Origin: an uncultured Bacilli bacterium
GTDB lineage: Bacteria; Bacillota_I; Bacilli_A; RF39; UBA660
Length of the DNA stretch: 64,000 nt
NCBI GenBank assembly: GCA_934141535.1
Contig: CAKPCH010000004.1
Coordinates: forward strand, 56,755-120,754
Direction: 5' to 3'
This document shows, in pieces, positions 21,019 through 50,191 of the stretch; within the stretch, counting starts at the first letter, position 1; the number at the start of each line of letters is the position of its first letter. The position numbers were made by a program, and so were the translations under genes. The notes under the pieces were generated by a model. The model was not told the origin of the DNA. It worked only from the letters and a program-made list of their open reading frames with translations, and did no database searches.

Positions 21019-21053
21019 AGTATCACCAATAAAGTATATGCTTAATTTTTTAG

Positions 21054-21719: not shown

Positions 21720-21818
21720 TTAACTAGTTTAGCATTTATTTTGATTTTAATCAACTATATTAAAAATATTTATTGTTTTTTTAATTTGTATATGTTATAT
21801 TAATATTAGGGTGAGTTT

Positions 21819-22823: not shown

Positions 22824-22853
22824 AAGAGATTTTAAATTAATCTCTTTTTTTCT
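22824..22853. terminator. Bidirectional terminator
   Basis: aagagatt-ttaaatt-aatctctt hairpin plus T7. Confidence 0.55.
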
Positions 22854-23344
22854 AATATAATATTATCTAAATCTCTTATAGTTAGTATATCATCATCTAC
22901 TATAATAAAACTATTAGAACCCATTCTTGATTTAGAAATTGATCCTGGATTTATAAATAATTTATTATTATATTCTTCTATTTTACTTATATGGGTGTGA
23001 CCAGTAAATATTATATTGGCATCTATTTTACTTAAATAGTCTTTATCAAATAAATCTCCATGTGTTAGAATTATTTTTTTATTATTTAGTTCTATTTCTT
23101 CTAAATACTTATTTCCAAATAATATACCTTTTAAATTGTTATCACAATTTCCTTTAACATATACTATATTATCTTTCATAAGGTTTAATCTATTAATTAT
23201 TTCTTCTATATTTAAATCTATTCCATAATTAATTAAATCGCCTAATATTAATAGTTTATTACAATGTTCTTTTTGATATATATTAAGGACTGTATTTAGA
23301 GCATCTATATTTCCATGTATATCTGATATTACCATATATTTCAT
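22832..23344 (-). CDS. YfcE-type metallophosphoesterase
   Basis: MVISDIHGN ... GDL ... GNCD ... THGD ... GHTH calcineurin-like motifs. Start at MKYM after the aaggtga RBS. Confidence 0.75.
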   Translation of the reverse strand: MKYMVISDIHGNIDALNTVLNIYQKEHCNKLLILGDLINYGIDLNIEEIINRLNLMKDNIVYVKGNCDNNLKGILFGNKYLEEIELNNKKIILTHGDLFDKDYLSKIDANIIFTGHTHISKIEEYNNKLFINPGSISKSRMGSNSFIIVDDDILTIRDLDNIILEKKRLI

Positions 23345-32350: not shown

Positions 32351-32430
32351 TAACATCACCTTACCGATATTAATATTATATCAATATTTAAGTTTAAAAA
32401 CAAGGTAAATAAAAAATCTAGTTTATAAAA

Positions 32431-34587: not shown

Positions 34588-34696
34588 ATTTAATTCATAT
34601 CCTTCTTTTATAGTTTACCACATATTACTATTTTTTTACATTCATTATTGGTATATTTATATAAAAACTATTCTTCATTATATTATTATAATATCG

Positions 34697-34750
34697 CAAA
34701 AAAAAAAAAAAAACAAGTAATATTTTTGAAAAATTAAAAATTTACTTGTT
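34697..34750 (-). terminator. Terminator-like hairpin plus T16 tract downstream of the SASP gene and upstream of the large surface-protein gene
   Basis: On the minus strand: caagtaa-N21-ttacttg inverted repeat, then 16 consecutive T (A16 on plus at 34697-34712). Confidence 0.5.
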
Positions 34751-34759
34751 TATAATTAC

Positions 34760-34963
34760 TTATTTAATTTTATAATTATTTATATTTTGATAATATTGTT
34801 TTCCTAAATTAACTAGTCTTTTAGTCATTTCTCCACCAACACTACCATTTAATCTACTTGAAGTATCAGGACCTAGTTCTACACCAAATTCTCGTGCTAT
34901 TTCATATTTTAAATTTTCTATAGCTTGTTTAGATCCAGGAACTACTAAAGAATTATTAGTCAT
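34760..34963 (-). CDS. Small acid-soluble spore protein, alpha/beta type
   Basis: [40 protein letters not shown] is the canonical alpha/beta SASP signature; 67 aa; RBS aggtga. Confidence 0.9.
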
Positions 34964-35003
34964 GTTATCACCTCATTATTATTATTTACTTATATTTAAA
35001 TAT

Positions 35004-35033
35004 TAGTATGAGAATTTTTTCCAATTAATATAC
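35004..35033 (-). promoter_or_regulatory. SigmaG/F-type forespore promoter for the SASP gene at 34760-34963
   Basis: On the minus strand: GTATA, 18-nt spacer, CATACTA (matches the GnATA / CAnnnTA consensus), about 45 nt upstream of the ATG. Confidence 0.5.
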
Positions 35034-35175
35034 TAAATATTGTTAAAATAGAAATATCTACTACTAATACTCTAAAATTATTAAGCCACAATAATAATGG
35101 AATCAGAAATTCTACTATCCATTTTCTTTCTTTTTTATAAAAAAAGATAGCAAGTAATCGCTATCCATTTTCTAA

Positions 35176-35382
35176 CTATTTAGTATAAGTGTTTCCACCT
35201 AAATGTTGTTCACCCATTTGAACTAATCTTTTAGTGATTTCTCCTCCAACTGAACCGTTAGCTCTTGAAGTAGCATCAGGACCCATAGTAACTCCTAATT
35301 CACTAGCTATTTCATATTTCATCTTATCGATTGCTTGTTTAGCTCCAGGTACAACAAATTTACTATTTAATTTGTTATTCAT
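35176..35382 (-). CDS. Small acid-soluble spore protein, alpha/beta type (second copy)
   Basis: [40 protein letters not shown]. Start re-placed at MNNKLNSK, which has a perfect aggaggtgaaatt RBS; the ORF track starts at an upstream TTG. Confidence 0.9.
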
Positions 35383-35404
35383 AATTTCACCTCCTGTACA
35401 TTTA

Positions 35405-35433
35405 TAATTTGTGTACAAAGAGGATTTTTATAC
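35405..35433 (-). promoter_or_regulatory. Putative sigmaG/F-type promoter for the SASP gene at 35176-35382
   Basis: On the minus strand: GTATA, 17-nt spacer, CAAATTA. Confidence 0.4.
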
Positions 35434-35458
35434 AAAATTTATTTGGTAATTTTTTCTT

Positions 35459-36628
35459 CTATAATAAATCACTTTTTTCTTGATTTAAATTTTTTATTAT
35501 TTCTACATTTTCTATACATTCATCTATTAATGCTTCATAATCAAATAATGATTCATAATATAAACATTTATTTATATTTGGATTTATTACAGGATGTGTT
35601 GGTAAAAATATAGTACAACAATCTTCATAAGGTAATATACTTGTTTCATATGTATTTATTTTATTTGCTATATCTATAATTTCCAATTTATCCATGCATG
35701 CAACAGGTCTAATTACAGGAAAATTGGTAACACTATTAATAACACCCATACTAGTTAAAGTTTGACTTGCTACTTGTCCAATACTTTCTCCATTAATTAT
35801 TACTTTGCATTTATGTTTTTTAGCTAACCTTTCAGCTATTCTATACATCATACGTCTCATAATAGTAATAACATAAGTATCTTCTACATTTTTATAAATT
35901 GCTTCTTGTAATTTAGTAAAAGGAATTACATTTACTGTTATTCCAAAAGAATACTCATTAATAATACTAGCTAATTTAATAACTTTATTTTTTGCTTCTA
36001 TACTTGTATGAGGTGGAGATTCAAAATATAAACATTCTAGATCTACTCCTCTTTTAAGTGCTAAATAACCTGCTACTGGAGAATCAATTCCACCACTTAG
36101 CATTAACATTCCTTTGCCTTGAATACCAACAGGATATCCACCAATTCCTTTAATTTCATTAGTATATATAAAAGTACCTTCAACTCTTATTTCAATAACT
36201 ACTTCTAAATCTGGATTTTTAACGTCTACTTTACAAGGTATAGCTCTTAAAACTGCACCACCTATTATATTATTTAATTCCATACTATGAACTTCAAAAG
36301 ATTTATCTGCTCTTTTAGTATGAATTTTAAAAGTATTAAAATTTTCCTTTTTTAATAAATCTATAACACAATTTTTAATATCTTCAATATTATTATTTAC
36401 TTTAGTAGCAATTACTATTCCATGTATACCAAATACTTTTTTAAGTGCTTCTACTATATGTTTTTCATCATCACATTCAATATACATTCTAACTCTATCA
36501 TACTTCATTTTATATTCATAATTTTTTAAAGCATTTCTTATATTATTAGCAAGTAATTTTATAAATGTTTTTCTATTTGCTTTTTTAGTTGTAAGTTCTC
36601 CATATTTAATTAATATTAATTTATTCAT
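35459..36628 (-). CDS. thiI: tRNA uracil 4-sulfurtransferase
   Basis: THUMP-containing N-terminus and the PP-loop SGGIDSPVAGY; about 390 aa. Start at MNKLI after the agggtga RBS. Confidence 0.85.
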   Translation of the reverse strand: MNKLILIKYGELTTKKANRKTFIKLLANNIRNALKNYEYKMKYDRVRMYIECDDEKHIVEALKKVFGIHGIVIATKVNNNIEDIKNCVIDLLKKENFNTFKIHTKRADKSFEVHSMELNNIIGGAVLRAIPCKVDVKNPDLEVVIEIRVEGTFIYTNEIKGIGGYPVGIQGKGMLMLSGGIDSPVAGYLALKRGVDLECLYFESPPHTSIEAKNKVIKLASIINEYSFGITVNVIPFTKLQEAIYKNVEDTYVITIMRRMMYRIAERLAKKHKCKVIINGESIGQVASQTLTSMGVINSVTNFPVIRPVACMDKLEIIDIANKINTYETSILPYEDCCTIFLPTHPVINPNINKCLYYESLFDYEALIDECIENVEIIKNLNQEKSDLL

Positions 36629-36711
36629 ACTTTTCACCCTTCACCTAGTAAATTATATCTTACTTTTAAAAAAAAGTAAATTAAAAAACAAGATTAAACT
36701 TGTTTTTAAGA

Positions 36712-36981
36712 TTATTTTTTAAATAGATTACTGTTAATCATATTATTAATATTTTTATTCATTAATACAAAGTTATCTTTTCTACCTCTTACGTTATTAC
36801 AATTAGGTATAAATGTATTAGATGAAGTTTTAATATTTGGCAAATTCTCACGTGCTTTCATTAAAACTAAATTATCACGACTATGACTTATATTTTTCTT
36901 TTTTAAATTATTTATATCGTTATTATTATGTATATAAATATTTCTTTCATTAAAGCCATCAGTATTAAAATTCATTAACAT
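36712..36981 (-). CDS. Hypothetical small Asn-rich protein
   Basis: ORF with an agggtga RBS before the internal ATG (MLMNF...). The ORF-track start would overlap the upstream gene by about 95 nt, so the shorter form is preferred. Confidence 0.3.
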   Translation of the reverse strand: MLMNFNTDGFNERNIYIHNNNDINNLKKKNISHSRDNLVLMKARENLPNIKTSSNTFIPNCNNVRGRKDNFVLMNKNINNMINSNLFKK

Positions 36982-37792
36982 ATTCACCCTTATATAAGCA
37001 ATACTCATTATATTTACATAATGTATCTTTATATGTATATTTGTATATCTTCTTATCATTTTTACTTAAAGAAGCAAATACATCATTTAAATTATCTTCA
37101 CTTATAAATGTACCACTCGTTAATTCCTGAGTATATGAAGCATCTTTATATATTTTATAAGTATTACCTTCTACCTTAGCAAATCCTACATAATTATAAA
37201 TAATAATATCATCATTTTCATATTGTGCTTTTATAAATTGTGTTAAATCATAATAAGCAACATTTTTGCTTTTTGAAGTACATAATCCTTCATATATAAA
37301 ACTTTTTAAAGAACTATTATAAGTCCAAGTACCAGGATATATACTAGAATCCTCTGGAACATAAAAACTATCTAATGTATATTTAATATCTTTACCTAAA
37401 ATATTTTGAATTCTAAGAGTTAAATATACATCACTAATAATTTTTGGTGTTGTAGTACATGAAACGCGTCCACTATAACTTTTTATATTAACTCCTTCTA
37501 TGCCTAAGAAAGCATTATATAATATATCATTATTTGTCATGTCTGAAACAGTAAATGTATTATTTAAATAATATGTATTACTTTCATATATACTACTTCT
37601 AAACTTAGGAGTATGTATACTATCTAAAATCTCTTGTGTTACTTCTTTTTTCTCATCATTATTTTTTTCTTCTTTATCTATTATTTTTGGCATTTTTAAT
37701 TTTTCTATATAGTTATATAAACTAGGTAAACAAAATACTAGTACTATAACAACTCCAAAACATATAAATATAAACTTATTATTTTTCTGCAC
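36965..37792 (-). CDS. Hypothetical membrane-anchored protein
   Basis: N-terminal TM segment (FIFICFGVVIVLVFCL), then a Lys/Glu-rich linker and a globular domain; no motif recognised. Confidence 0.4.
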   Translation of the reverse strand: MQKNNKFIFICFGVVIVLVFCLPSLYNYIEKLKMPKIIDKEEKNNDEKKEVTQEILDSIHTPKFRSSIYESNTYYLNNTFTVSDMTNNDILYNAFLGIEGVNIKSYSGRVSCTTTPKIISDVYLTLRIQNILGKDIKYTLDSFYVPEDSSIYPGTWTYNSSLKSFIYEGLCTSKSKNVAYYDLTQFIKAQYENDDIIIYNYVGFAKVEGNTYKIYKDASYTQELTSGTFISEDNLNDVFASLSKNDKKIYKYTYKDTLCKYNEYCLYKGEYVNEF

Positions 37793-37802
37793 ACTATTCA
37801 CC

Positions 37803-38792
37803 CTATATTAAACTTTTTCTAACAAAAACGTTTATCCCTTCTTTTATATATATTAAAATATCAGTACCTATTGTAAAATGAATGAAACCTAATCCTTGAA
37901 TTACTAAATCTTCATCACTATTTATTTTAAATTTGTAGCACTTCAATCCATTAAAGTCACTATTTATTTTATAACTTCTATTTATTTTTAAAGCATTTGA
38001 TATATAGTATGTCATGTTTGTCTTAGATAATATATCTATTTTAAATATATTATCTATAATAAAACTTTGTGGACACTTAACTTGATATGTTATAGGTTTT
38101 ATTTCTTGTTTAGGTATTATTCTCTTTAAAGTCTTATCATCTACATAATTTATTATATCACCTTCATCAAGCAATCCTGGTGTATCTATAAGTGTTAATG
38201 AATCTGAAAGCTTTATATCAATACTATCAATAGTAGTAGATGGCATATTACTTGTAGTAATATATGAATCAGATGAAGTATAATTATATATTAATTTATT
38301 AATTAATGTACTTTTACCTGAATTAGTAAATCCTACTACGTATACCCTATTACTTTTTTTATATTTATTAATTTTATTAAATAATTCATCAATATTATAA
38401 TTTTTCTTACTACTAACAACTATACTATCTATAAAATTAATATTTAAATATTTAAAATAGGCTTTTAATGATTCATCATAGCAAGAACGTGGTATAATGT
38501 CTCTTTTAGTTAATACTAATAAAATATCATTATTTAAATACTTTTTAATATCTATTAAATCTTTACTTATATTAAATAAATCAACTACTAATACAACTAA
38601 ATCTTTACTATTATTAATGCTTTTTAATATATCAATGTATTCTTCATTAGTAGCGTTTACTTTAGATATTTCATTATAATTTCTAATTCTAAAGCATCTT
38701 TGACATAGTTTATTAGTTATATCTTTTGTATAGCCAATTTCTAATTCATTTAAATTTTGGAGTACTACTCCACATCCTATACATTTACACAT
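37803..38792 (-). CDS. yqeH: Ribosome biogenesis GTPase YqeH (circularly permuted GTPase with N-terminal zinc finger)
   Basis: N-terminal CIGCGVVLQ ... CQRCFRIRNYN zinc-ribbon; permuted G-motifs (LTKRD precedes GFTNSGKST ... DTPG). Confidence 0.75.
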   Translation of the reverse strand: MCKCIGCGVVLQNLNELEIGYTKDITNKLCQRCFRIRNYNEISKVNATNEEYIDILKSINNSKDLVVLVVDLFNISKDLIDIKKYLNNDILLVLTKRDIIPRSCYDESLKAYFKYLNINFIDSIVVSSKKNYNIDELFNKINKYKKSNRVYVVGFTNSGKSTLINKLIYNYTSSDSYITTSNMPSTTIDSIDIKLSDSLTLIDTPGLLDEGDIINYVDDKTLKRIIPKQEIKPITYQVKCPQSFIIDNIFKIDILSKTNMTYYISNALKINRSYKINSDFNGLKCYKFKINSDEDLVIQGLGFIHFTIGTDILIYIKEGINVFVRKSLI

Positions 38793-39306
38793 AGTATCTT
38801 CCTTTTGTAAATAGGCTTTTATCTCTTAATGATTTTTGAATATGTCTTTCTTTTATTCTTTTTAATTTAGCAAAAGGAAATTCTTTTTTATTTATTTGAT
38901 CTAAAAGAATAGTAGTTATTCCTATTGTATTACCACATACTACATCATCCATCATAGAATCTCCTATCATAGCTATTTCATCAAGTCCAAAACCACTTTT
39001 TTTAATAAGTTCACTAATAGATTCAATATGTGGTTTTCTAGCACTATAAATATAATCTACTTTAAGTTCTTCATGAAAAGGTTTTACTCTTCTTTTAATA
39101 CTATTGGATGCTATAAAGATTTTAAAACCTTTATTTTTTAAATCTTTAAATAATTTTTTAGTTTCTTCTCTTGGTAAACTTTCAGTAATTGGTACTAATG
39201 TATTATCAAGATCGAATATTAAGCATTTTATTCCTCTTGTAATTAACATATCATAATCTATTTTGTATATATTTTCTTGATAAATATCAGGAACATAAAT
39301 TTCCAT
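38785..39306 (-). CDS. yqeG: HAD-IIIA phosphatase YqeG
   Basis: CLIFDLDNTLVP motif I, SNS motif II, GDSMMDD motif IV; immediately upstream of yqeH as in the Bacillus yqeG-yqeH operon. Confidence 0.7.
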   Translation of the reverse strand: MEIYVPDIYQENIYKIDYDMLITRGIKCLIFDLDNTLVPITESLPREETKKLFKDLKNKGFKIFIASNSIKRRVKPFHEELKVDYIYSARKPHIESISELIKKSGFGLDEIAMIGDSMMDDVVCGNTIGITTILLDQINKKEFPFAKLKRIKERHIQKSLRDKSLFTKGRYYV

Positions 39307-39401
39307 CTATTACACCTCACTAACCTAATACTAATAATATTTTATCACAATAAATTATACTTATCAATTAAAAAAGAAAAACTATTGAAATTTTCAATAG
39401 T

Positions 39402-40388
39402 TTAACCTAACATAGATTTTGAAATTGTTATAACTGGACGAAGACCATAGTTGTCAGAATTGTTGACTTCGTCGCGATTGCTAAAGTAACCATTATAGTA
39501 AACGCCCCACGCGTAGTAAGAGTAATCATCAGTAGGAGTTGTTGTCCAATATCCATATACTGGATGGGTTGTATCTTTTAAATTATCATATAACCATATT
39601 AGTAAAGCTCCTCCTTTATTGCCCGCTGCTATATATATTTGATCTTTTGTTGGAAAACTTACTTCTACTCCATTTTTATTAAATATACTCTTTATATGTC
39701 CTAAATAATCTTTGCCTTCTACAGCATTACTTCCTATTGCTGTTATATTTTTACAAGTTGTATTGATTATGCTTCCATCTGTACACCAAGCTACTCCTGA
39801 TGGCACATATGAATCCACAAAGTTTTCTTTCATGATTAAACTTACTGTATCTGTATTGTTTTCTAGTACAAAGAATGTATTTGTGTAACTATCTCCAACC
39901 TTGCATGTGTATTCATCACCATATGCATAACTTCCTGTTGGCACGTTCCCTGTTGTTGCTGTAGTTACTGCTGTACATACTGGATTGAATTGCTCTATTT
40001 TTCCATTATTATATGAATATGCTGCATCTGATACCTTAAAATTTGAAATACCTGTTATTTTCCCATTCGATAATAATATCTTACTACCTACATCTGGAGT
40101 TATTCCATTAATTTCTATTTTAATATAATCAGTAGTTCCATCACATTTTAATCCTTCACTTTCTACTACACATTCTGTTGGATTAAAGTTTGCCCCTGGA
40201 TGTACCATATTATATCTAGCTATCTCATTTTTTACTTGATCTAAATATAATTCTATACTTCTTTCTGTTGAATTATTTTTACTATCCTTTATTATATTTA
40301 ACACTACTGGTGTAGCTATTAATGCGATAATTGCAAGTATTACGATGACTGCTAATAACTCTATTAATGTAAAACCTTTATTTTTCAT
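39402..40388 (-). CDS. Type IV prepilin-like protein with a Cys-containing C-terminal globular domain (paralogous to 32431-34587)
   Basis: MKNKGFTLIELLAVIVILAIIALIA is a class III (prepilin peptidase) leader/methylation motif; C-terminal domain CTAVTTATTGNVP ... YGLRPVITISKS. Confidence 0.7.
   Translation of the reverse strand: MKNKGFTLIELLAVIVILAIIALIATPVVLNIIKDSKNNSTERSIELYLDQVKNEIARYNMVHPGANFNPTECVVESEGLKCDGTTDYIKIEINGITPDVGSKILLSNGKITGISNFKVSDAAYSYNNGKIEQFNPVCTAVTTATTGNVPTGSYAYGDEYTCKVGDSYTNTFFVLENNTDTVSLIMKENFVDSYVPSGVAWCTDGSIINTTCKNITAIGSNAVEGKDYLGHIKSIFNKNGVEVSFPTKDQIYIAAGNKGGALLIWLYDNLKDTTHPVYGYWTTTPTDDYSYYAWGVYYNGYFSNRDEVNNSDNYGLRPVITISKSMLG
39640..39990. repeat. DNA-level repeat (copy B), about 85% identical to 33880-34240
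   Basis: See copy A; the same conserved blocks in the same order on the same strand. Confidence 0.7.
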
Positions 40389-40439
40389 TTCATAAATCCC
40401 TCTTTCTACTATAGTAATAGTATACTATCAATCAAAAGA

Positions 40440-40486
40440 AAAAACAAGTAATATTTTCAAAAATTCACTTGAAAATTACTTGTATA
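40440..40486 (-). terminator. Terminator-like inverted repeat upstream of the prepilin-like gene, related in sequence to the element at 34697-34750
   Basis: On the minus strand: caagtaa-N24-ttacttg followed by tttttcttttg. The left arm plus loop (aaaacaagtaatatttt.aaaaatt) matches the 34714-34740 element at 25 of 26 positions. Confidence 0.45.
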
Positions 40487-40903
40487 TTATCTTTTATATC
40501 TTCTAATTTTTTCTACATCACTTCTATGTAGTACTTCATCATTTTTTATATTAAATTTTAACATACTATTAAATTCTTTTATAGCTTCATTAGTATTACA
40601 ACTATACATAACATCATCTTCTACATTATATAATGAATAAATTTTATTTACTTCTAGTACTCCTGTTTTTTCATTTACTCTAGATGAATATATTATAACT
40701 TTACCATTTTTATAAGCTATATTAATAGGATCTAATTCTTTATAATATCTTCCTATAAATTTTACTACACCATTTATTCTAGTAGTTACATCATAAAATC
40801 TATTTCCTCTTTTTTCATATTCTTGAATAGTTACACTATCATTTTTATTTATCATAGCTGTTATTGAATATGGCACTGGTTTGCATTCGTTTATATCGTT
40901 CAT
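40487..40903 (-). CDS. Hypothetical protein
   Basis: 138-aa ORF with RBS aaggagag; no motif recognised. Confidence 0.4.
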   Translation of the reverse strand: MNDINECKPVPYSITAMINKNDSVTIQEYEKRGNRFYDVTTRINGVVKFIGRYYKELDPINIAYKNGKVIIYSSRVNEKTGVLEVNKIYSLYNVEDDVMYSCNTNEAIKEFNSMLKFNIKNDEVLHRSDVEKIRRYKR

Positions 40904-41911: not shown

Positions 41912-42120
41912 TAAATCACCAAATTTAGTATAACACATTTTTTATTATTTGTTAACCCGTTTGCTTTTTTTTACACCAATCATACTTAAGCGATTACCTA
42001 ATAACCTTGTATAACAAAAAATAGATTAATTCAATTGTAATTTAAGATGTCAATATTGATTAGCATATCAATAGAAGTGACTTATTTAATAGAAATTTTT
42101 AACAGTCTCCACCTAACAAT

Positions 42121-43371
42121 TTATAATGACCAATAAATTACATCACTCTCAAATTTATAATCTTTGTATATTGAATACAAATCTAATATTATTTTTTTAG
42201 AACATTTTTTATTAAAGTAGCTCATTATTTTTTCTTTATTCATACTTCTGTATTTATCATGTGGAACTGCGATTATCAGTATATCCAAATCTTGCAATTT
42301 CTCGTAATTATTAAAATAGGTATTTTTGTCAAATAACATATAATCCGAAATCCTACAATCATAATTTTGTTTTTTTAACTCACGATAGATTATATCAACC
42401 TTAGTATTTCTAACATCATCTGAATTTGCCTTATAAGAATAACCTAAAATTCCTACCTTAATATTGTTATTGTTTTTTATATCAGCTACCATCTCATTCA
42501 AACTATTTACTATAAATAAAGGAATATTCTCGTTTGTTTTTCTTGCTTGTTTTACTATATTCATATTATATCCATATTTGTTTCCTAAATCAATAAGATA
42601 ATACGGATCGATGCCAATACAATGACCTCCAACTAAGCCTGGAAGAACGTCAACAAAATTCCACTTTGTTTTTGCGGTTTCTAAAACATCTATTGTTGAT
42701 ATCTTCATTAAATGGCACAATTGTGAGACTTCATTAACAAATGCAATATTTAAATCCCTCTGAGAATTTTCAATAATTTTTGACAGTTCTGCGACTTTTA
42801 TGCAACTAGCTCTATACAAACTAACATTAGATATTAAACTGTATAATTTTTCAACTTGGTCTAAAACAAAATTATTTTGCGCTGAGATAACTTTAGTAAC
42901 AGAATTAATAGTATGAAGATTATCAGATGGGTTTATTCTTTCAGGAGAATATCCAACAAAAAAATCGACATTATTCTTTAACCCACTATATTTTTCTAAT
43001 AATGGAATGCATATATTTTCTGTTACGCCAGGATAATAAGAAGATTCAAATATTATTAGTGAATTTTTTTTAAAATTATACCCTATTGTTCTACAGGCTT
43101 CAATAACAAATTCCAAATTTGGTCTATTATTATCGTATACAGGCGTTGGGACTGTAACTATGATTGCATCTGACTTGCCAATACATTTGTCATTATAAGT
43201 ATAAACAATATTACAGTTTTTATTATTTTTGCTTAAAGTTTTAATTTTATCATTATCAATATCATATGCAAACACTTTTTTAGTTTTAGCAAATTCATTT
43301 ATTAAAGGTTGTCCAACATATCCAACACCAACTACTGTTATTGTAAAATTATTATCTCCTATTTCTTTCAT
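42121..43371 (-). CDS. NDP-sugar (UDP-glucose/UDP-N-acetylhexosamine) 6-dehydrogenase family protein
   Basis: N-terminal ITVVGVGYVGQPL Rossmann motif and a catalytic-Cys context (GGHCIGIDPYY); 416 aa. Confidence 0.8.
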   Translation of the reverse strand: MKEIGDNNFTITVVGVGYVGQPLINEFAKTKKVFAYDIDNDKIKTLSKNNKNCNIVYTYNDKCIGKSDAIIVTVPTPVYDNNRPNLEFVIEACRTIGYNFKKNSLIIFESSYYPGVTENICIPLLEKYSGLKNNVDFFVGYSPERINPSDNLHTINSVTKVISAQNNFVLDQVEKLYSLISNVSLYRASCIKVAELSKIIENSQRDLNIAFVNEVSQLCHLMKISTIDVLETAKTKWNFVDVLPGLVGGHCIGIDPYYLIDLGNKYGYNMNIVKQARKTNENIPLFIVNSLNEMVADIKNNNNIKVGILGYSYKANSDDVRNTKVDIIYRELKKQNYDCRISDYMLFDKNTYFNNYEKLQDLDILIIAVPHDKYRSMNKEKIMSYFNKKCSKKIILDLYSIYKDYKFESDVIYWSL

Positions 43372-43372
43372 A

Positions 43373-44191
43373 TTATCCCATCACTTTCAACAAAGGAGCA
43401 AGATACTTCTCACTTCCATAATTAATACCATTATAATCTTTAGCATTTCCATGATAATCCGTCCCTGCCGTTTTTATACAATCGATAAAAAGACTGTTTG
43501 TATCCAAATAATTACTAAATTCAATTGAATTTTTAGGATTAATGACTTCCAATCCATTTAATCCATAGTTTAAAAAAACTTTTACAATTGATTCAAATTC
43601 AATAATAGATGAACATTGATTTAAAAGTGTCATGGGATGAGCTAAAACAATTATAGAATTAAGTGATTTCAATATGTCAATTGTTTCTTTAACTTGTAAT
43701 TTCTTTTGAACTATATATGACTGACTTCTAGAACCAATAAAGTTTTTATAAATAAAATCAACATCATCAACATTAAATTTTTCTAATAATATTTTGGCTA
43801 TAATCCGTTTATTTAACAGATCTTTTGTGTACTTTTTTATGTCATTATCATCAATAACAATTCCATATTTATATTCTAATATTTTTATAGCAGCCCTACA
43901 AATGTAATCATTTTCTAACTTTATTTGTCTTAAATATCCATTAAGTTTTTTTAAATCATTAACTCCATATGCTAACAAATGAATACTTTTGTTATTATAA
44001 TTACAATCAATTTCAATACCGTTTATTATAGTTATATTATTGTATAATGATGTTACACTCTCGCATATGTTATGATCAGTAAAAGATAAATACAATATAT
44101 TATTGTCTAATGCTGTTTTAATTAAATCGTCTCTACTTGAAATACCATCACTTAATGTACTATGAACATGTAAATCAAAATTTATAGACAT
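43373..44191 (-). CDS. PHP-domain metal-dependent phosphoesterase
   Basis: FDLHVHSTLSDG N-terminal PHP motif, internal ... AHP ... and GTDYHG. Start placed at MSINFDLHVHS. Confidence 0.7.
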   Translation of the reverse strand: MSINFDLHVHSTLSDGISSRDDLIKTALDNNILYLSFTDHNICESVTSLYNNITIINGIEIDCNYNNKSIHLLAYGVNDLKKLNGYLRQIKLENDYICRAAIKILEYKYGIVIDDNDIKKYTKDLLNKRIIAKILLEKFNVDDVDFIYKNFIGSRSQSYIVQKKLQVKETIDILKSLNSIIVLAHPMTLLNQCSSIIEFESIVKVFLNYGLNGLEVINPKNSIEFSNYLDTNSLFIDCIKTAGTDYHGNAKDYNGINYGSEKYLAPLLKVMG

Positions 44192-44630
44192 TTTTACACA
44201 ACCTTTCATTTAATTCCCAAAGTGCATTTTTATTGCTATCCCATTCAAACATTTTCATTGCATCACTATAATTAACCCATTTAAAAGATTTATGTTCTTC
44301 AGATATTTTTATTTTGGCATCATCCACACAAACACCAAATGAATATTCTTTTACGATATATGTTTCTTTTTCAAACTTTGTACCTGAAATATTAATTGAA
44401 GGCATGCTAGCAAATGATGATAATTTTACTAAATTTGTGTTGTATGGAATATTACCTTCTTCATACATTTCCCTTCGTGCAGCCTGTTCTATACTTTCAC
44501 TGTCCTCTACTCCACCAGCTATTCCTTGCCATACATTTAAATCCTCTCTTAAAAATAAACAATATTCAATACAATTTAATTTTGTATTCATTCTATATGG
44601 AATAACTAAAACTTGTATTGGCTTCCTCAC
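44175..44630 (-). CDS. Nudix hydrolase, NudB-like (dihydroneopterin triphosphate pyrophosphatase-like), copy 2
   Basis: Nudix box GGVEDSESIEQAARREMYEEGNI (Gx5Ex7REUxEExGU). Layout and C-terminal ALWELN segment resemble NudB; about 45% identical to 48370-48819. Confidence 0.65.
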   Translation of the reverse strand: MRKPIQVLVIPYRMNTKLNCIEYCLFLREDLNVWQGIAGGVEDSESIEQAARREMYEEGNIPYNTNLVKLSSFASMPSINISGTKFEKETYIVKEYSFGVCVDDAKIKISEEHKSFKWVNYSDAMKMFEWDSNKNALWELNERLCKNVYKF

Positions 44631-45585
44631 TATTAACCTCCTTAATGATATTTATAACACTATTTTTCTTACTTAATAGCCACTTTATCATTTCAAATTT
44701 GTATTTTGCATAACTAATATCATCATCGACATCAAGACAGTAAAGGCTATTTAAGGATATATAGTTAAATAAATTCAAGCCATCTAATAAGTATTCATTA
44801 GTAATATAATAAACATTTTTATATCCCTCAAGAAAATTTTTAATATTATATAAAATTTTTGTATCATCAAAATTTTTATCATAACATATCATACTAATTG
44901 CACGATATATTTCATATTGTAAAGGAAAAATGCAAGTTTGGTCTAAATCTAGACACACTAATTTATTTGTTTTGATAATGTTATCAAGGTAAAAATCGCC
45001 GTGCACAATTTTATTGTTATATTTTAAATAAATTTGTTCAATACTCCTAAAGTCAACTTTTTTTAATAGTTTTAACTTTGACCTTAAAATTTGAATTGCC
45101 TCTGTGTTACCTGTTTTTACATGCAAACTAATTAAATTATTAATTCTATCTATATTGGGAGTGGTCATATTTAAATTTTTTGTATCATAGTTTTTGATAT
45201 TTTTAATAATAGATGAATTTAGGGTTTTATGTATATTCCCAAGCAACTCTCCTAGTTTATACTGCTCTTGAGAACCCAATCTTTGTTTATTCAAATGTAG
45301 ACCATCAATATATTCATATAAAACGTAATATTTATCATTATATGTAAAATATGTTCTACCATCTATTGTAAAAATAATCTTGGCTGATAAATTATTGCTC
45401 GATAAAATATTTTGAACAACATTTATAAACTCAAGCCTATTTAACTTATCAACAGCCATTTCTTTTAATAGATATTTCCTATCTTTTGTAGTTAATATCC
45501 ACTTTTTGCAAGCATATCCTAATGATAAAGGCTGTTTTTCTATTATAAAAATATTATAAAAATCATTAATAATTTTATTTTTCAT
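44593..45585 (-). CDS. APH-fold small-molecule kinase (aminoglycoside/choline/sugar-kinase phosphotransferase family)
   Basis: HGDFYLDNII (HGD catalytic loop) and DLDQTCIFP (DxD metal-binding). RBS gggaga; overlaps the DegT stop by 11 nt. Confidence 0.65.
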   Translation of the reverse strand: MKNKIINDFYNIFIIEKQPLSLGYACKKWILTTKDRKYLLKEMAVDKLNRLEFINVVQNILSSNNLSAKIIFTIDGRTYFTYNDKYYVLYEYIDGLHLNKQRLGSQEQYKLGELLGNIHKTLNSSIIKNIKNYDTKNLNMTTPNIDRINNLISLHVKTGNTEAIQILRSKLKLLKKVDFRSIEQIYLKYNNKIVHGDFYLDNIIKTNKLVCLDLDQTCIFPLQYEIYRAISMICYDKNFDDTKILYNIKNFLEGYKNVYYITNEYLLDGLNLFNYISLNSLYCLDVDDDISYAKYKFEMIKWLLSKKNSVINIIKEVNSEEANTSFSYSI

Positions 45586-46744
45586 TTAATTCTCCCAAAA
45601 CTTCATATAATGATTTAACAAATGAATTACATATATATTGATTATCTTTTTTAGACATGTTGAAATGAATGGGTAAGTTTATTATTCTCCCACCTAATTC
45701 ACGCGAAATGTTTTTATATTTAGTATCTATATGTTCATCAACATATTTATGAATCATAAATGTGGGTTCATTAGCAACGGTAGTTTTTATTTGATACTTT
45801 TCTTCTAAAATTTTCATAATTTTATTTCTGCTGTTTCTAGTAAACATATCATTTAATATGATAGTATAATAGGTATAAATATGATAGTAAATTTCATCAA
45901 AAACTGGCAAAGAAAAATATTTGCTATACTTTTTTAACATATTATTTCTTTGAAGTGCTACTTTACGTCTTTTTTTGTTATATTTATCAATTTTTTTTAA
46001 TTGTGATATACCCACGCTGGATTGAACTTTTGATAATTTATAATTCGAGCCCCAAGCATCCATTTTTCTTCCACCAAATTCTCTTCTTTTTTTCATTTTT
46101 TCATAATATTCATAATTATTCGTTAAAATCATACCGCCTTCTCCAAGAGTGGATATGTTTTTTTTGCTTTGAAAGCTAAAAACTGATATATCTCCCAAGC
46201 AACCGACTTTCTTTTTATCATAAGATGCACCACAACATCTAGCGACATCTTCTATTATAACGATATTAGAATCATATTTTTTTATAATATTAATAATTTT
46301 ATTCATATCAGCAGATACACCATTCATATGTGTAACAACAACTGCCCTGGTATTTTTTGTTAAATTATTTTTGATTGAATTTGCCGAAATATTTAAAGTT
46401 TTATCATCAACATCACATAATACTAATTTTGCTGGAGTTGACAATATTGATAAATGTGTACCATAGAAATTTATTGCAGATGATATGACTTCATCATTTG
46501 GTTTTAATTCAAGAACTTGCATTGCAATATCAATGCCACTATTACAACCGTTTACAGATAATGCATATTTTTTCCCTATATATTCTGAAAATTTTTTTTC
46601 AAATTCTACGCGATAATCAATGGTATCACATACTTTCCAGTTGCATAAACTATGCATCGACTTAATAACATATATATAGTCAGTTATGGTATATTTAAAA
46701 TTTGGAGGTTGAGACTGATAACTTTTTTTCACTATTAAACACAT
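45575..46744 (-). CDS. DegT/DnrJ/EryC1/StrS-family PLP-dependent sugar aminotransferase/dehydratase
   Basis: YALSVNGCNSGIDIAMQVL, DEVISSAINF, and the SFQSKKNIS region (PLP-binding Lys in SxxxxK context); 389 aa. Confidence 0.75.
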   Translation of the reverse strand: MCLIVKKSYQSQPPNFKYTITDYIYVIKSMHSLCNWKVCDTIDYRVEFEKKFSEYIGKKYALSVNGCNSGIDIAMQVLELKPNDEVISSAINFYGTHLSILSTPAKLVLCDVDDKTLNISANSIKNNLTKNTRAVVVTHMNGVSADMNKIINIIKKYDSNIVIIEDVARCCGASYDKKKVGCLGDISVFSFQSKKNISTLGEGGMILTNNYEYYEKMKKRREFGGRKMDAWGSNYKLSKVQSSVGISQLKKIDKYNKKRRKVALQRNNMLKKYSKYFSLPVFDEIYYHIYTYYTIILNDMFTRNSRNKIMKILEEKYQIKTTVANEPTFMIHKYVDEHIDTKYKNISRELGGRIINLPIHFNMSKKDNQYICNSFVKSLYEVLGELNEK

Positions 46745-46784
46745 CCTTTTAAAATTTAAACAATTTTACTATTTAGCCTATTAT

Positions 46785-47756
46785 TTAGTTACTATAATTA
46801 GAAAATATGTTGCTTTTATGCACTAATATTTTTGCGGTAGATAAATAAAAATCACTTTGATGGTCATTAAATTTCAATAATTCATTCAGAAAAAATTGTT
46901 CCTTAGATATAGCTGAAATGTGTTGTCTTTCTATTTGCGATATAATTTCCTCTACATCCAACAACTCATTAAAAACTTGCATGCTATTTTTTTTGTCATA
47001 ACATGTAACAATAATTTCAGAAAGTTCTGCTTTTGAAACGAATTTACAATTAAAGGCATTAAGTAAATTAAAAACAGTCAAATTGAGTTTTTTGGAATCC
47101 AGGCAATTGTCAGCATTTTTTTGATATAATTCTTTATCAATATACGGTAATATAAGGTTCTTAAGATTATAATTTAATTCTAATGTTGGATATCTTAAAC
47201 CTAGATTAGAAGGAAAACCATATACAATTAATTTTCCATTATAATATCTTAATCCTATTCTATCATTTCCCATATAATCATATTTTTTGGATAATAAATA
47301 AAATAATAAATTTGTCGTTTTACCACTACCACTATTGCCAATAAAAACAGTTGCTTTATTTGTTTTTTTATTTACCACTGATGCCCCATGAACAAAATAA
47401 ATTCCAATATCTTCATAATATTTGGCAAAAATATCTATTATTATTCTCTTTAGATTAAGACAATGATCTGCATTAAAATGATCATAAATAAATTTAATAT
47501 TATTTTTTTTATTTGAAAAAATCAATGTATTTGGCGCCATAATAAAACATTTATTTTTAGAATATTCAATTGTTTCTTCAGCAACAATATCAAGAGTAAC
47601 TAATTCAGTTGGAATGTTTTTCTCATTATAATCACTAATAACAAAACACCCATTAAAATGTTGAGACATTTTTGTATTAAGATTGGGTACACTTGTTTTA
47701 ATTATTATTTTTAGCCCATCTTTAAATATTTCATAGCAGTTCATTTTAAGCTTCAT
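46785..47756 (-). CDS. HPr kinase C-terminal-domain-like P-loop protein
   Basis: HGASVVNKKTNKATVFIGNSGSGKTT resembles the HprK/P C-domain (H-G ... GxSGxGKS/T). Confidence 0.4.
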   Translation of the reverse strand: MKLKMNCYEIFKDGLKIIIKTSVPNLNTKMSQHFNGCFVISDYNEKNIPTELVTLDIVAEETIEYSKNKCFIMAPNTLIFSNKKNNIKFIYDHFNADHCLNLKRIIIDIFAKYYEDIGIYFVHGASVVNKKTNKATVFIGNSGSGKTTNLLFYLLSKKYDYMGNDRIGLRYYNGKLIVYGFPSNLGLRYPTLELNYNLKNLILPYIDKELYQKNADNCLDSKKLNLTVFNLLNAFNCKFVSKAELSEIIVTCYDKKNSMQVFNELLDVEEIISQIERQHISAISKEQFFLNELLKFNDHQSDFYLSTAKILVHKSNIFSNYSN

Positions 47757-47795
47757 TCCTTTCTATTCCATATATAAGCACACAAACAAGAAAAA

Positions 47796-48362
47796 CTACA
47801 AATGTTTTATTGTGTCCAACTTTGCCATCGACATATTACTTTGTGGCAATATTATATACTCATTATTAGGGTTAGATTTTATATAAGTTATATTATATTC
47901 TTTAAACAAATCCATATATTTCAAACTACGTTTTATACTTTCTAAATACTCTATATCTCCACGAGTTGTATCATACCAGTCTTTTTTTTTAACTCTTTCA
48001 AGTAAAACTTCCGTATCTGCTGTAACATATATTATATCAATACTAATGTCATTTAACTTTTCTTTAATTGTTTTAATAAAATTACCTCTTATGTCTGAAT
48101 TCTGTCCTTTGATCAAAATAATTATATCATTTTTTTGTGAACACAACAATATAATGTCATCTATCATTTCAATTCGTTTTTCAGTAATATTGTCAGTTTT
48201 ATTTTTTGATATATATTCAATACTTTTATCGAGAATAATTGTTTTTTTCAAATCAATATTTAAATTAGAATTTAATTTTTCATCTTTGCCATTATAGATG
48301 TACTTAATTAATGTTTCTTTGCCACTAGCACTACTGCCAAAAAACCAAATTAATCTATTCAT
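47796..48362 (-). CDS. Small P-loop kinase (NMP/sugar kinase-like, AAA_33-type)
   Basis: N-terminal WFFGSSASGKETL Walker A; 188 aa. Confidence 0.5.
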   Translation of the reverse strand: MNRLIWFFGSSASGKETLIKYIYNGKDEKLNSNLNIDLKKTIILDKSIEYISKNKTDNITEKRIEMIDDIILLCSQKNDIIILIKGQNSDIRGNFIKTIKEKLNDISIDIIYVTADTEVLLERVKKKDWYDTTRGDIEYLESIKRSLKYMDLFKEYNITYIKSNPNNEYIILPQSNMSMAKLDTIKHL

Positions 48363-48369
48363 TGCAATA

Positions 48370-48819
48370 CTATTTTAAATCAGAATTTAATAATCTTTGA
48401 TTTAATTCCCAAAGTGCAGTTTTATTACTATCAAATTCTAATTTCCTACATGCTTCATCAAATGGAAGCCATTCATAACAATTGTGTTCACTAGATAATT
48501 TAATACTACTATTTTTTGTAAATACTCCAAATGAATATTCTGTAACAACGTACACGTCATTTCCCCAAGTGAATTTTCCTGTTATATTAATAACAGGTAT
48601 TGAGCAAACAGATGATAGTTGAAAAATATTATTTGCCTCTATATTTGTTTCTTCAAAAACTTCTCTTTTTACTGTTTCAATCAAGGTTTCTTCATCTTCC
48701 ACTCCACCTGATATAGCCTGCCATATTTGCTTTTTTTTTCTATAAAATACACAATATTCATATTCGTCTTTCTTGTTTTTTCTATATAAGAATATTAATA
48801 CTTGTTTTGGCTTTCTCAT
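48370..48819 (-). CDS. Nudix hydrolase, NudB-like, copy 1
   Basis: IWQAISGGVEDEETLIETVKREVFEETNI Nudix box (compare E. coli NudB FWQSVTGSVEEGET ... REVKEE). 2-nt gap to the upstream radical SAM gene. Confidence 0.7.
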   Translation of the reverse strand: MRKPKQVLIFLYRKNKKDEYEYCVFYRKKKQIWQAISGGVEDEETLIETVKREVFEETNIEANNIFQLSSVCSIPVINITGKFTWGNDVYVVTEYSFGVFTKNSSIKLSSEHNCYEWLPFDEACRKLEFDSNKTALWELNQRLLNSDLK

Positions 48820-48820
48820 G

Positions 48821-50017
48821 TTATTTTTTCTCCTTTATTTCATTTATGCTTTTTATTAATGATTCTATCCCACCTTCATTATATATTTCATAGGCAATTT
48901 CTAATAATCTGTTTGCTCTATTTTTAAATGGATCACATACTGATGGACAAATGTCTGGAATTTTATCATCAATTTTATTTTCTAAAATTTTCCCCCAAAT
49001 TTCACTAAAACTTTGTTTAATCGTCGAACCATAATTATATCCGTTTTTCTTTGGATGATAATTACATAAATAAACTTTGCCATCGGATGAAATGTTACCT
49101 ATTAGATAATGGACAAAACACTTATTAAATTTTCTGATTTTGTCATCATCACTCATAACATTATGAATTTCAACTACTGAAAAGAATTCATCACATAATT
49201 CTTTTTTTACTTGTTTAATTTGTTCACTTGCAATATTTTTTTCTTCATCGTTCATGACAAGTAAAGATGCAATATCTGTTTTGAATCGCAAATAGTGAAC
49301 ACCTATTCTTTTCAGTTTTTTAGCTAGCCCATAAATCTGGTCATAATTATATTGGTTAATAACATAACCTACGTTAATATCTATATTGCTATTATTTTTT
49401 TTCTTTGATTCATATAAATCCTCTATATTTTTTAATATAGTTTCAAAGCTATTAGTGTTGCTACCATTACATTTTAATTTATTATATGTTTCATGATTTC
49501 CAGCATCTATACTTATTAATATATATCCCAGTTTTAATAATGTCTCATGCATTTTTTTATCAATAAGAATACCATTTGTAAATAAGCCAACACGAATATT
49601 ATGTTTTGACAATTCTTCTATAGCATACAAAACAGAATCTTTTGCAATTAAAGGTTCTCCTGTTATTCCTGAAAAAGTAACATTTTCAACTCTGTATTCC
49701 TTATTACAATTATTTTTGTAATCATAACCCATTTTTTTGTAAGTTATAATATCATTTACTATCTTAATCATGTTTTTTTTCTTAACCAAGGCATTATCTA
49801 GTAATGTCTCTTTATTTTCTTTAGAGGAAACATATCCACCTATACACCATTTACAGTTTAAATTACAGATACTAGATGTGTGAATTAATATTTCATACGG
49901 TGGTAAAATTTCACCATTAAAAATATTTAAAATGCGAGAAAAATGTCTATCCAACATTTCCATCTCATTAAATCTGCCAGGTAAATCATCTCTATAAACT
50001 TCTCTTAATTTATTCAT
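48821..50017 (-). CDS. Radical SAM enzyme (about 400 aa) of unknown specificity
   Basis: CNLNCKWC (Cx3Cx2C) about 45 residues into the protein, SGITGEPL (SAM/glycine-rich motif), LFTNG, and C-terminal Cys CNYHP ... CPSVCDP. Start placed at MNKLREV after a ggagtg RBS; the ORF track starts 21 nt upstream. Confidence 0.75.
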   Translation of the reverse strand: MNKLREVYRDDLPGRFNEMEMLDRHFSRILNIFNGEILPPYEILIHTSSICNLNCKWCIGGYVSSKENKETLLDNALVKKKNMIKIVNDIITYKKMGYDYKNNCNKEYRVENVTFSGITGEPLIAKDSVLYAIEELSKHNIRVGLFTNGILIDKKMHETLLKLGYILISIDAGNHETYNKLKCNGSNTNSFETILKNIEDLYESKKKNNSNIDINVGYVINQYNYDQIYGLAKKLKRIGVHYLRFKTDIASLLVMNDEEKNIASEQIKQVKKELCDEFFSVVEIHNVMSDDDKIRKFNKCFVHYLIGNISSDGKVYLCNYHPKKNGYNYGSTIKQSFSEIWGKILENKIDDKIPDICPSVCDPFKNRANRLLEIAYEIYNEGGIESLIKSINEIKEKK

Positions 50018-50191
50018 TATTAACACTCCATAAATCACTTATATGTATATATTACCATTTTTCAAAAAAAAGTCAATTGTTGTAAGGCAATCGTGTAAAA
50101 AATAATAAATAAATCTACTTAACAATTAACTATCATAGTATTATTTTAAAAATAAGTCATTCTATTCTCAAAAAATCTAACGCATTTTTTA

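Follow-up and report, generated by a model that had tools for sequence, protein, structure and literature searches.

What do nine tightly packed genes in the genome of an uncultured gut bacterium accomplish together, and how did they come to lie among genes of the bacterial core? The question is posed by a 64,000-nucleotide stretch of DNA (contig CAKPCH010000004.1 of assembly GCA_934141535.1, positions 56,755 to 120,754; hereafter the window) from a member of the Bacilli (GTDB lineage Bacillota_I; Bacilli_A; RF39; UBA660). A reading of this DNA made from the sequence alone had singled out an operon that combines a radical S-adenosylmethionine (SAM) enzyme, two Nudix hydrolases, three kinases, a DegT-family enzyme dependent on pyridoxal 5'-phosphate (PLP), a PHP-family phosphoesterase and a nucleoside diphosphate (NDP)-sugar dehydrogenase, and had put it forward as a candidate undescribed biosynthetic system. 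Our analyses show that the locus is a horizontally acquired operon of about 8.1 kb, inserted between a PRC-barrel (ylmC-like) gene and a core gene for a GT4 glycosyltransferase. As to its role, we tentatively propose that the operon makes a small aminated, phosphorylated sugar or sugar-nucleotide antimetabolite by way of radical SAM and DegT tailoring.

The insertion is apparent from a comparison with two related genera (DagK proteins 48-52% identical) that do not have the island. Their gene order is sigG, DagK, PRC-barrel (76 aa), GT4, a gene for a protein of 142-145 aa and SMC, with the PRC-barrel and GT4 genes directly adjacent and separated by just 33-40 nt; the nine genes of the window thus sit exactly in that gap (41939-50191). 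The cluster is present at the same site in every strain of the same species examined (loci L073-L078, found through their identical flanking DagK protein), all of them from gut metagenomes. An empty site in the two related genera and an occupied one in all these strains bear out the earlier suggestion that the genes form an accessory island. The GT4 gene passes the equivalog model of the lipoteichoic-acid-anchor enzymes IagA/BgsA (506 bits versus a cut-off of 460) and has a host-like GC content at third codon positions (GC3); it is a core gene that the insertion has cut off from its upstream partner. The sequence-only reading had further noted that the operon sits beside this glycosyltransferase and pilin-like surface proteins. 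Since neither the GT4 nor the pilin-like gene travels with the cluster, these neighbours are unrelated to it and the cell-surface context is coincidental.

Base composition sets the island apart as well. The window is extremely AT-rich (about 24% GC), and GC3 falls between 0.154 and 0.206 in all nine island genes (mean 0.18), as against a mean of 0.093 (s.d. 0.023) for the 52 other genes of the window. Cysteine accounts for 2.1% of the residues in the island proteins and 1.3% elsewhere in the window, so that the suspected difference from the core, including the surplus of cysteine, is borne out by the numbers and is large.

Further versions of the cluster occur in settings that point to its mobility. 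The same nine genes in the same order, encoding proteins 68-84% identical to those of the window, are found in locus L007 with different flanks, directly after a gene for a 592-aa tyrosine integrase. In L085 (1-16675), a penicillin-binding-protein gene is split by an eight-gene version (radical SAM protein 77% identical) and a gene for a large serine recombinase; PBP_dimer and Transpeptidase domains are encoded upstream of the insertion, Transpeptidase and PASTA domains downstream. More distant versions adjoin integrases in locus L079 and in the Pectobacterium locus L003, and others are carried by plasmids of Bacillus toyonensis. The island proteins are up to 77-84% identical across these contexts, whereas outside the species no protein matches the flanking DagK at more than 55% identity; this pattern fits recent transfer. 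At the island ends of the window we found no terminal direct repeats or att sites, only AT-rich noise. The cassette is, in sum, mobile-element cargo shared across phyla. The interruption of the penicillin-binding-protein gene in L085 recalls the excisable intervening elements of sporulation genes. We also encountered copies that look decayed or reduced: the DegT gene is split into two ORFs in L076 (14609-15621), the radical SAM frame is interrupted near its C-terminus in L007 (4358-5580), and L064 (1-3071) holds only the radical SAM, Nudix, PHP and dehydrogenase genes, so that the block between the two Nudix paralogues is missing. These copies may represent assembly errors or real gene loss.

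The genes of the cluster are co-inherited to a different degree. We predicted open reading frames (ORFs) in every retrieved locus, ran the window proteins and two profiles against them and counted occurrences over 62 non-redundant loci with a radical SAM homologue. A Nudix gene is present in 51 of them, a gene for a P-loop protein resembling HPr kinase and phosphoenolpyruvate carboxykinase (PEPCK; hereafter the HprK-like protein, 323 aa in the window) in 47 and a DegT gene in 46, followed by the dehydrogenase (27), the APH-family kinase (at least 21; it recurs in the Streptomyces loci as well) and the PHP phosphoesterase (13). Because of these counts, the widely conserved core is a quartet of radical SAM, HprK-like, DegT and Nudix genes, and the rest are frequent accessories. 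Some of the partners are even fused, as seen for DegT and APH (L008/L011), for HprK-like and Nudix, and for HprK-like and HD_4. The radical SAM family itself has 138 database matches at E <= 1e-5, the best 120 of them at E <= 5e-78, and its hosts comprise Bacillota including Listeria monocytogenes, many Streptomyces and other actinomycetes, Pectobacterium, Atlantibacter, Kosakonia, Xenorhabdus, Elusimicrobia, Patescibacteria, Acidobacteria and WOR-3. The co-occurrence of the core across phyla upholds the idea that the genes are co-inherited. As regards the whole set of nine, the idea has to be narrowed: the four-gene core is kept, but the other five genes are accessories, and one of them, encoding a P-loop protein of 188 aa, was detected by sequence search only in loci of the window type (L007 and L073-L078), with an unannotated 183-aa gene at its position in L085. 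The variation is that of a biosynthetic core with lineage-specific tailoring, not of a chance juxtaposition.

The tailoring genes differ among hosts. Versions from Streptomyces add a carbamoyltransferase and an adenosine deaminase; that of Listeria monocytogenes (L001, 4320-18068) adds a ligase similar to class-II aminoacyl-tRNA synthetases, a carrier protein, a BtrH_N-like transferase, an NTP_transf_5 protein and an ATP-binding cassette (ABC) exporter, and a similar set accompanied by a methyltransferase and an adenosine deaminase is found in one gut locus. The version on the Bacillus toyonensis plasmid pBT001 (L082) adds a decarboxylase, a carrier protein and an acyl-CoA dehydrogenase, and other gut loci add extra Nudix, PHP and APH copies, a Maf protein and an ABC exporter (the last two in L086). 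The butirosin-like side-chain machinery of the Listeria and Bacillus plasmid versions, together with the ABC exporter of the former, suggests an N-acylated, secreted product. Adenosine deaminase genes occur in 12 loci and are part of the operon in Streptomyces, L079 and L005, while seven loci have a gene for an NDP-sugar epimerase or 4,6-dehydratase next to the radical SAM gene. In the gene tables of 13 related loci, neither the cluster nor its immediate flanks include a glycosyltransferase, flippase or polymerase gene; just two such genes lie in the vicinity, namely the core GT4 gene of the window and, in L007, a Wzy_C O-antigen-ligase-like gene some 1 kb downstream of the cluster. Locus L005 (1-21227) is an unusually dense island of nucleotide phosphate metabolism, in which the dehydrogenase-radical SAM pair lies amid six Nudix, four PHP and two APH genes together with genes for a RelA/SpoT-type protein, a UvrD helicase, an adenosine deaminase, a CYTH protein, an inorganic pyrophosphatase and a histidine phosphatase.

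In the window, the operon comprises nine minus-strand ORFs at 42121-50038, the very coordinates from which the earlier description had started, packed with gaps of 1, 7, 39, 40 and 1 nt and overlaps of 11, 38 and 35 nt (table 1). The likely true start of the radical SAM gene is the ATG at 50017, which is preceded by a GGAG motif, gives a protein of 398 aa and is also the start chosen by gene callers. The family assignments stand, with matches above the Pfam cut-offs for Radical_SAM and SPASM, NUDIX (twice), DegT_DnrJ_EryC1, APH, PHP and three UDPG_MGDP_dh domains, and the translations preserve the catalytic motifs (CNLNCKWC of the radical SAM enzyme, the Nudix box of each Nudix protein, two Walker A motifs and the APH, PHP and dehydrogenase motifs given in table 1). 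The three kinases, on the other hand, are better described as one secure kinase, the APH protein that passes the Pfam cut-off, and two probable ones, given that the evidence is sub-threshold for the 188-aa protein and at the profile level for the HprK-like protein. Similarly, the 182-nt gap separating the operon from the GT4 gene is real, but the inverted repeat reported in it amounts to a weak AT-rich stem of 7 bp (around 42054-42073) that a terminator scan did not call. A search against Rfam gave no match in the upstream junction and no family reaching its gathering score anywhere in the window; neither a riboswitch nor any other RNA was detected.

Table 1. Genes of the island, in order of transcription, and its two junctions (positions in the window).
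Feature	Position	Strand	Remark
Radical SAM enzyme with a C-terminal SPASM/Twitch-like cysteine set	48821..50038	-	family-defining gene
Nudix hydrolase A, small, NudB-like, Nudix box intact	48370..48819	-	Pfam NUDIX 42 bits
P-loop protein similar to nucleoside monophosphate and deoxynucleoside kinases, 188 aa, Walker A GSSASGKET	47796..48362	-	sub-threshold matches only
HPr-kinase/PEPCK-like P-loop protein, 323 aa, GNSGSGKTT	46785..47756	-	profile level; core cassette member, fast-diverging
DegT/DnrJ/EryC1-family PLP aminotransferase	45575..46744	-	Pfam 257 bits
APH-family small-molecule kinase, catalytic motif HGDFYLDN	44593..45585	-	Pfam APH 39 bits
Nudix hydrolase B, paralogue of Nudix A	44175..44630	-	Pfam NUDIX 47 bits
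PHP-family metal phosphoesterase, TrpH/YciV type, HVH motif	43373..44209	-	Pfam PHP 34 bits
NDP-sugar 6-dehydrogenase, UDP-HexNAc dehydrogenase clade, catalytic Cys motif GGHCIGIDP	42121..43371	-	TIGR03026 293 bits
Upstream junction of the island, promoter-like site 50171-50143	50039..50191	-	TTGAGA-17-TAAAAT, 10/12 positions
Downstream junction of the island, weak inverted repeat and GT4 promoter-like site 41955-41927	41939..42120	-	

The most informative protein for predicting a function is the radical SAM enzyme. Its predicted model has DesII and BlsE as the top neighbours in a fold comparison and carries an N-terminal extension of about 45 residues with two short helices. The sequence identity to these neighbours is low (13-15% to DesII, 16% to BlsE), a PDB search with the single sequence gave nothing useful, one with a profile yielded only remote SPASM matches, and DesII is not among the sequence matches. 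The SPASM match in Pfam passes the cut-off, and four C-terminal cysteines are invariant or nearly so across 68 homologues, implying an auxiliary cluster. The best curated similarities include viperin (E 1e-16) and the PADLOC family pVip (E 1.5e-17), with a score of 61 bits against the viperin equivalog NF038283, whose cut-off is 180; in the NCBIfam scan all viperin and MoaA models stayed far below their cut-offs. We considered and rejected a maturase cluster for ribosomally synthesised and post-translationally modified peptides (RiPPs) of the radical SAM/SPASM kind, as the intergenic gaps, none longer than 40 nt, are too short for a precursor gene, no domain resembling a RiPP recognition element is present and the top fold is that of a sugar-nucleotide enzyme. 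In locus L072 (9077-11008), a distant homologue (22% identity) forms a fusion with a sugar-1-phosphate nucleotidyltransferase domain (PF00483), and the gene immediately upstream encodes a DegT protein.

The dehydrogenase passes the family model TIGR03026 (293 bits, cut-off 189.8), with three Pfam domains and the catalytic cysteine motif in place; against the equivalog of TviB and other UDP-N-acetylglucosamine (UDP-GlcNAc) 6-dehydrogenases (NF011729) it scores 262 bits, the cut-off being 592, which puts it in the same clade but not in the equivalog. Its PDB matches are UDP-N-acetylmannosamine (UDP-ManNAc) dehydrogenase, Cap5O and CalS8. Across the family its gene is often directly upstream of, or overlaps, the radical SAM gene, which it abuts in Listeria, Pectobacterium and gut loci. 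Nudix A and Nudix B are 49% identical, a paralogy visible in the DNA as direct repeats D1, D8 and D12; Nudix A scores 65 bits against the NudB equivalog (cut-off 103), and its best PDB match is an uncharacterised Nudix protein (3son, E 2e-28). Substrates of Nudix enzymes are nucleoside diphosphates linked to another moiety, X. The PHP protein has PHP phosphoesterases as its PDB matches and shows weak similarity, well below the cut-offs, to 3',5'-nucleoside bisphosphate phosphatase and to RNase RNM. The DegT protein likewise falls below the cut-offs of PseC (192 bits, cut-off 423.5), LegC (148 bits, cut-off 420), WecE and ArnB; its PDB matches are sugar and inosose aminotransferases, the best of them named glutamine-scyllo-inositol transaminase.

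Of the kinase-like proteins, the APH kinase found no match in a PDB sequence search, and the 188-aa protein has sub-threshold matches to AAA_18, dNK, dTMP kinase, APS kinase and the PADLOC family VakA. The HprK-like protein, used as a single sequence, gave no family match in Pfam or NCBIfam and nothing useful in the PDB. An exhaustive search with hidden Markov models recovered 308 relatives. A profile built from 55 of these finds HPr kinase structures at E 5e-5, albeit over an alignment of only about 60 residues, and Pfam Hpr_kinase_C is matched by 15 of the 55 sequences, in each case below the gathering score. Its AlphaFold2 model, built from 6 sequences, has a predicted local distance difference test (pLDDT) score of 47 and is unusable for fold comparison.

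Does the combination correspond to any pathway already described? Searches of the full-text literature returned no description of it, in a body of literature of limited coverage that leaves key papers on aminonucleosides outside, and the curated equivalogs of viperin, PseC, LegC, ArnB, TviB, NudB and the phosphatase of 3'-phosphoadenosine 5'-phosphate (pAp) are all missed by a wide margin, with only the generic dehydrogenase family reached. The statement that the genes match no known pathway therefore withstands this comparison and, the cluster being also co-inherited, inserted and compositionally distinct, so does its standing as a candidate undescribed biosynthetic system. Pseudaminic and legionaminic acid pathways were rejected, not only on the PseC and LegC scores cited above but also for want of a NeuB-like synthase and an acetyltransferase, and so was the 2-deoxystreptamine pathway (BtrN/BtrR type), tests for a 2-deoxy-scyllo-inosose synthase and a BtrN-like radical SAM dehydrogenase both being negative; on these exclusions we concur with the sequence-only reading.

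Several known systems are nevertheless partly similar. DesII, acting with DesI/DesV on thymidine diphosphate (TDP)-sugars, shares with the cassette the radical SAM fold and the pairing of a radical SAM with a DegT enzyme. However, besides the low identity to DesII, a TDP-glucose synthase and a 4,6-dehydratase are lacking in the window, the family studied here has four conserved C-terminal cysteines, unlike DesII, and the desosamine pathway has no Nudix, HprK-like, APH or PHP partners. The blasticidin S pathway, with BlsE and the DegT-type BlsH, offers the same likeness of fold and of pairing with a PLP enzyme, but cytosylglucuronic acid synthase, cytidine monophosphate (CMP) hydrolase, arginine aminomutase and ligase are all missing from the window, and the cassette has spread far beyond actinomycetes. 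The puromycin/A201A module resembles the cassette at the family level in that oxidation, transamination, Nudix pyrophosphohydrolysis and dephosphorylation follow in the same order, and some related clusters add an amino-acid-loading enzyme, a step that puromycin biosynthesis also has; here, in contrast, a radical SAM enzyme replaces the dehydrogenase dependent on nicotinamide adenine dinucleotide (NAD), an NDP-sugar dehydrogenase and three kinases are extra, and methyltransferases and an N-acetyltransferase are absent. The lincosamide sugar pathway comprises the kinase LmbP, the phosphatase LmbK, the nucleotidyltransferase LmbO, the dehydrogenase-like LmbL and the DegT protein LmbS. It is similar in that a kinase and a phosphatase reposition a sugar phosphate and an NDP-sugar-dehydrogenase homologue and a DegT enzyme tailor the NDP-sugar, which sets a precedent for finding kinases and a phosphatase within a single amino-sugar operon, but it has no radical SAM, Nudix or HprK-like component, and nothing in the cluster suggests an octose. 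Finally, prokaryotic viperins (pVips) and their associated nucleotide kinases are brought to mind by a weakly similar radical SAM protein (E 1e-16 to 1e-17) beside a gene for a P-loop kinase-like protein on a mobile island; the differences are the score of 61 instead of 180 bits, the SPASM-like domain, which viperins are not known to carry, and the association of the family with DegT (46/62 loci) and Nudix (51/62) genes.

The fold closest to DesII and BlsE leads us to a scheme in which a sugar is oxidised, converted to a ketone and aminated while bound to a nucleotide. The substrate of DesII is a TDP-sugar and that of BlsE a hexuronic-acid nucleoside; both enzymes give keto-sugars that are then aminated by DegT-type enzymes. 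By analogy, the dehydrogenase would oxidise an NDP-hexose, probably a uridine diphosphate-N-acetylhexosamine (UDP-HexNAc), to a uronic acid; the radical SAM enzyme would abstract a hydrogen from the sugar, with dehydrogenation or dehydration yielding a keto-sugar; and the DegT enzyme would turn the ketone into an amine. The Nudix enzymes would then cut the nucleoside-diphosphate linkage, the PHP protein would remove a phosphate, and the three kinase-like proteins would add, move or keep phosphate groups, be it to reposition phosphate to the anomeric position, to form a leaving group or to protect the producer. In other hosts, the carrier-protein enzymes would acylate the product on nitrogen and the ABC pump would export it. 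We consider this scheme the best supported because the intact dehydrogenase gene lies by the radical SAM gene, an epimerase/dehydratase gene occurs in seven loci, a fusion with a nucleotidyltransferase exists and the type of substrate handled by Nudix enzymes fits. The kinase roles are its weakest part and are guesses, with precedents in the phosphate repositioning of the lincosamide sugar pathway, in the use of phosphate as a leaving group in cordycepin biosynthesis and in the self-protection by O-phosphorylation of aminoglycoside and hygromycin A producers. All steps of the chemistry we infer from families, folds and neighbours, and the product is a candidate only.

Apart from these guesses, several observations weigh against the proposed sugar-nucleotide chemistry. 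The dehydrogenase is present in just 27 of the 62 loci, so that a uronic acid may not be an obligatory intermediate, and the window cluster is devoid of a sugar-1-phosphate nucleotidyltransferase, a glycosyltransferase and an exporter. Other features point to a nucleotide as the substrate, namely the weak likeness of the radical SAM protein to viperin and of the 188-aa P-loop protein to a viperin-associated kinase, the adenosine deaminase genes of 12 loci, the Maf, RelA/SpoT, CYTH and further Nudix genes near the cluster in gut loci, and the pAp-phosphatase-like character of the PHP protein. They would suit the main rival explanation, an aminonucleoside or aminonucleotide pathway, similar to those of puromycin or 2'-amino-2'-deoxyadenosine, which we deem rather unlikely overall. 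In such a pathway, the radical SAM enzyme would oxidise or dehydrate the ribose of a nucleoside triphosphate, DegT would aminate it, Nudix would trim the triphosphate to a monophosphate and PHP would take the last phosphate, the kinases serving to reactivate the product (an amino-deoxy nucleoside or nucleotide acting as an antimetabolite or chain terminator) or to protect the producer. The puromycin pathway indeed employs the dehydrogenase Pur10, the DegT protein Pur4, the Nudix protein Pur7 and the phosphatase Pur3, and 2'-amino-2'-deoxyadenosine biosynthesis begins with the Nudix protein AdaJ. Consistent with this possibility are also the closest relationship of the Nudix enzymes to NudB, a pyrophosphatase of dATP and dihydroneopterin triphosphate, that of the PHP protein to 3',5'-bisphosphonucleotide phosphatases, the likeness of the radical SAM protein to both viperin (E 1e-16) and pVip (E 1.5e-17), the weak likeness of the 188-aa protein to dNK, dTMP and APS kinases as well as VakA, the adenosine deaminase within the operon of Streptomyces, L079 and L005, and the Maf gene near the cluster in L086. 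What an intact NDP-sugar 6-dehydrogenase would do to a nucleotide, however, is not obvious; in fold, the radical SAM protein is nearer to DesII and BlsE than to viperin or MoaA, whose models all score far below their cut-offs; associations with NDP-sugar epimerase/dehydratase and nucleotidyltransferase do exist; and the adenosine deaminase could instead clear 5'-deoxyadenosine, the by-product of radical SAM chemistry. A 2025 review lists 2'- and 3'-aminonucleosides among compounds 'without identified BGCs' (biosynthetic gene clusters); this leaves room for the cassette and proves nothing.

The remaining explanations appear still less probable. If the cluster were an anti-phage defence island producing a modified nucleotide upon infection in the manner of viperin, with the Nudix and phosphatase activities limiting self-toxicity, its nature as integrative-element cargo, the weak pVip and VakA matches and the UvrD helicase, RelA/SpoT, CYTH and many Nudix genes adjoining it in gut loci would be accounted for. 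We find this improbable, since no PADLOC model is convincingly matched (pVip, hit by the radical SAM protein alone, is the sole match better than E 1e-4), a set of nine biosynthetic genes that includes a PLP aminotransferase and a sugar dehydrogenase is not typical of known defence systems, the carrier proteins, acyl-transfer enzymes, carbamoyltransferase and ABC exporters of related clusters are typical of secondary metabolism, and the phage collection searched has only distant radical SAM relatives (25% identity). Even less can be said for a cell-surface glycan precursor, i.e. an amino-uronic sugar nucleotide made for capsule, teichoic acid or a pilin glycan in concert with the GT4 and pilin-like genes. 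The dehydrogenase is indeed of the UDP-HexNAc dehydrogenase clade that serves capsule and O-antigen synthesis, loci of that kind commonly encode DegT enzymes and the GT4 gene lies 182 nt downstream, but that gene encodes the core glycolipid-anchor enzyme with host-like GC3 and directly follows the PRC-barrel gene in relatives without the island; this empty-site result largely excludes the explanation. The absence of glycosyltransferase, flippase and polymerase genes from the cluster and its immediate flanks in those 13 loci argues the same way, and an activated sugar donor would be broken down, not assembled, by Nudix, PHP and three kinases. Lastly, we give very little credence to a myo-inositol-type aminocyclitol pathway resembling that of streptidine, with cycles of oxidation, transamination, phosphorylation and dephosphorylation on a cyclitol. 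It is brought to mind by the name of the best PDB match of DegT, by APH-type kinases and a phosphatase that fit streptidine logic, and by the butirosin-like side-chain genes (BtrH_N-like, carrier protein, decarboxylase) of the Listeria and Bacillus versions; yet it leaves the near-universal Nudix and the NDP-sugar dehydrogenase unexplained, and the loci with gene tables examined contain no inositol-phosphate synthase, 2-deoxy-scyllo-inosose synthase or amidinotransferase.

Some features of the window outside the island deserve mention. Where the two related genera have SMC directly after the 142-145-aa gene, the window contains about 8 kb of extra genes (29408-40903), encoding YqeG, YqeH, a 278-aa protein, ThiI (35459-36637), a 718-aa protein without a Pfam match (32431-34587) and the type-IV-pilin-like protein with an N_methyl motif (39402-40388), whose GC3 of 0.173 is atypical; this segment may be a second rearranged or inserted piece. 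At about 19500-23000, where a ZIP transporter, an acyltransferase_3 protein and a SpoIIM gene are located, the GC skew changes sign and the gene orientation switches from plus to minus, so that the genes converge, as would fit a replication terminus. The host, a gut Bacillota with the sporulation genes sigG and SpoIIM, has a GC3 of about 9%, one of the lowest values known from bacteria.

Returning to the proposed antimetabolite pathway, we think it possible, with due reserve, that the quartet represents a biosynthetic route that our literature searches did not turn up, that it leads to aminated, phosphorylated antimetabolites of a new class, either sugar-nucleotides or nucleotides, and that it moves between phyla on mobile elements, its hosts being human-gut Bacillota, Listeria monocytogenes, plasmids of the Bacillus cereus group, plant-pathogenic Enterobacterales and many Streptomyces. 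In some of these hosts the product may be an antibiotic or an antiviral nucleotide analogue. If this is true, an unexplored family of natural-product clusters can be recognised by a small conserved set of four enzymes, which provides a genome-mining handle in Streptomyces, Bacillus, Listeria, Pectobacterium and uncultured gut bacteria. It would also add to radical SAM chemistry a new reaction whose substrate is a sugar nucleotide or a nucleotide, and would for the first time give a fast-evolving family of HPr-kinase-like proteins a function other than carbon catabolite control and peptide tailoring. For the very AT-rich gut Bacillota themselves, the cluster would then be a mobile trait with a likely ecological effect, such as antagonism or phage resistance.

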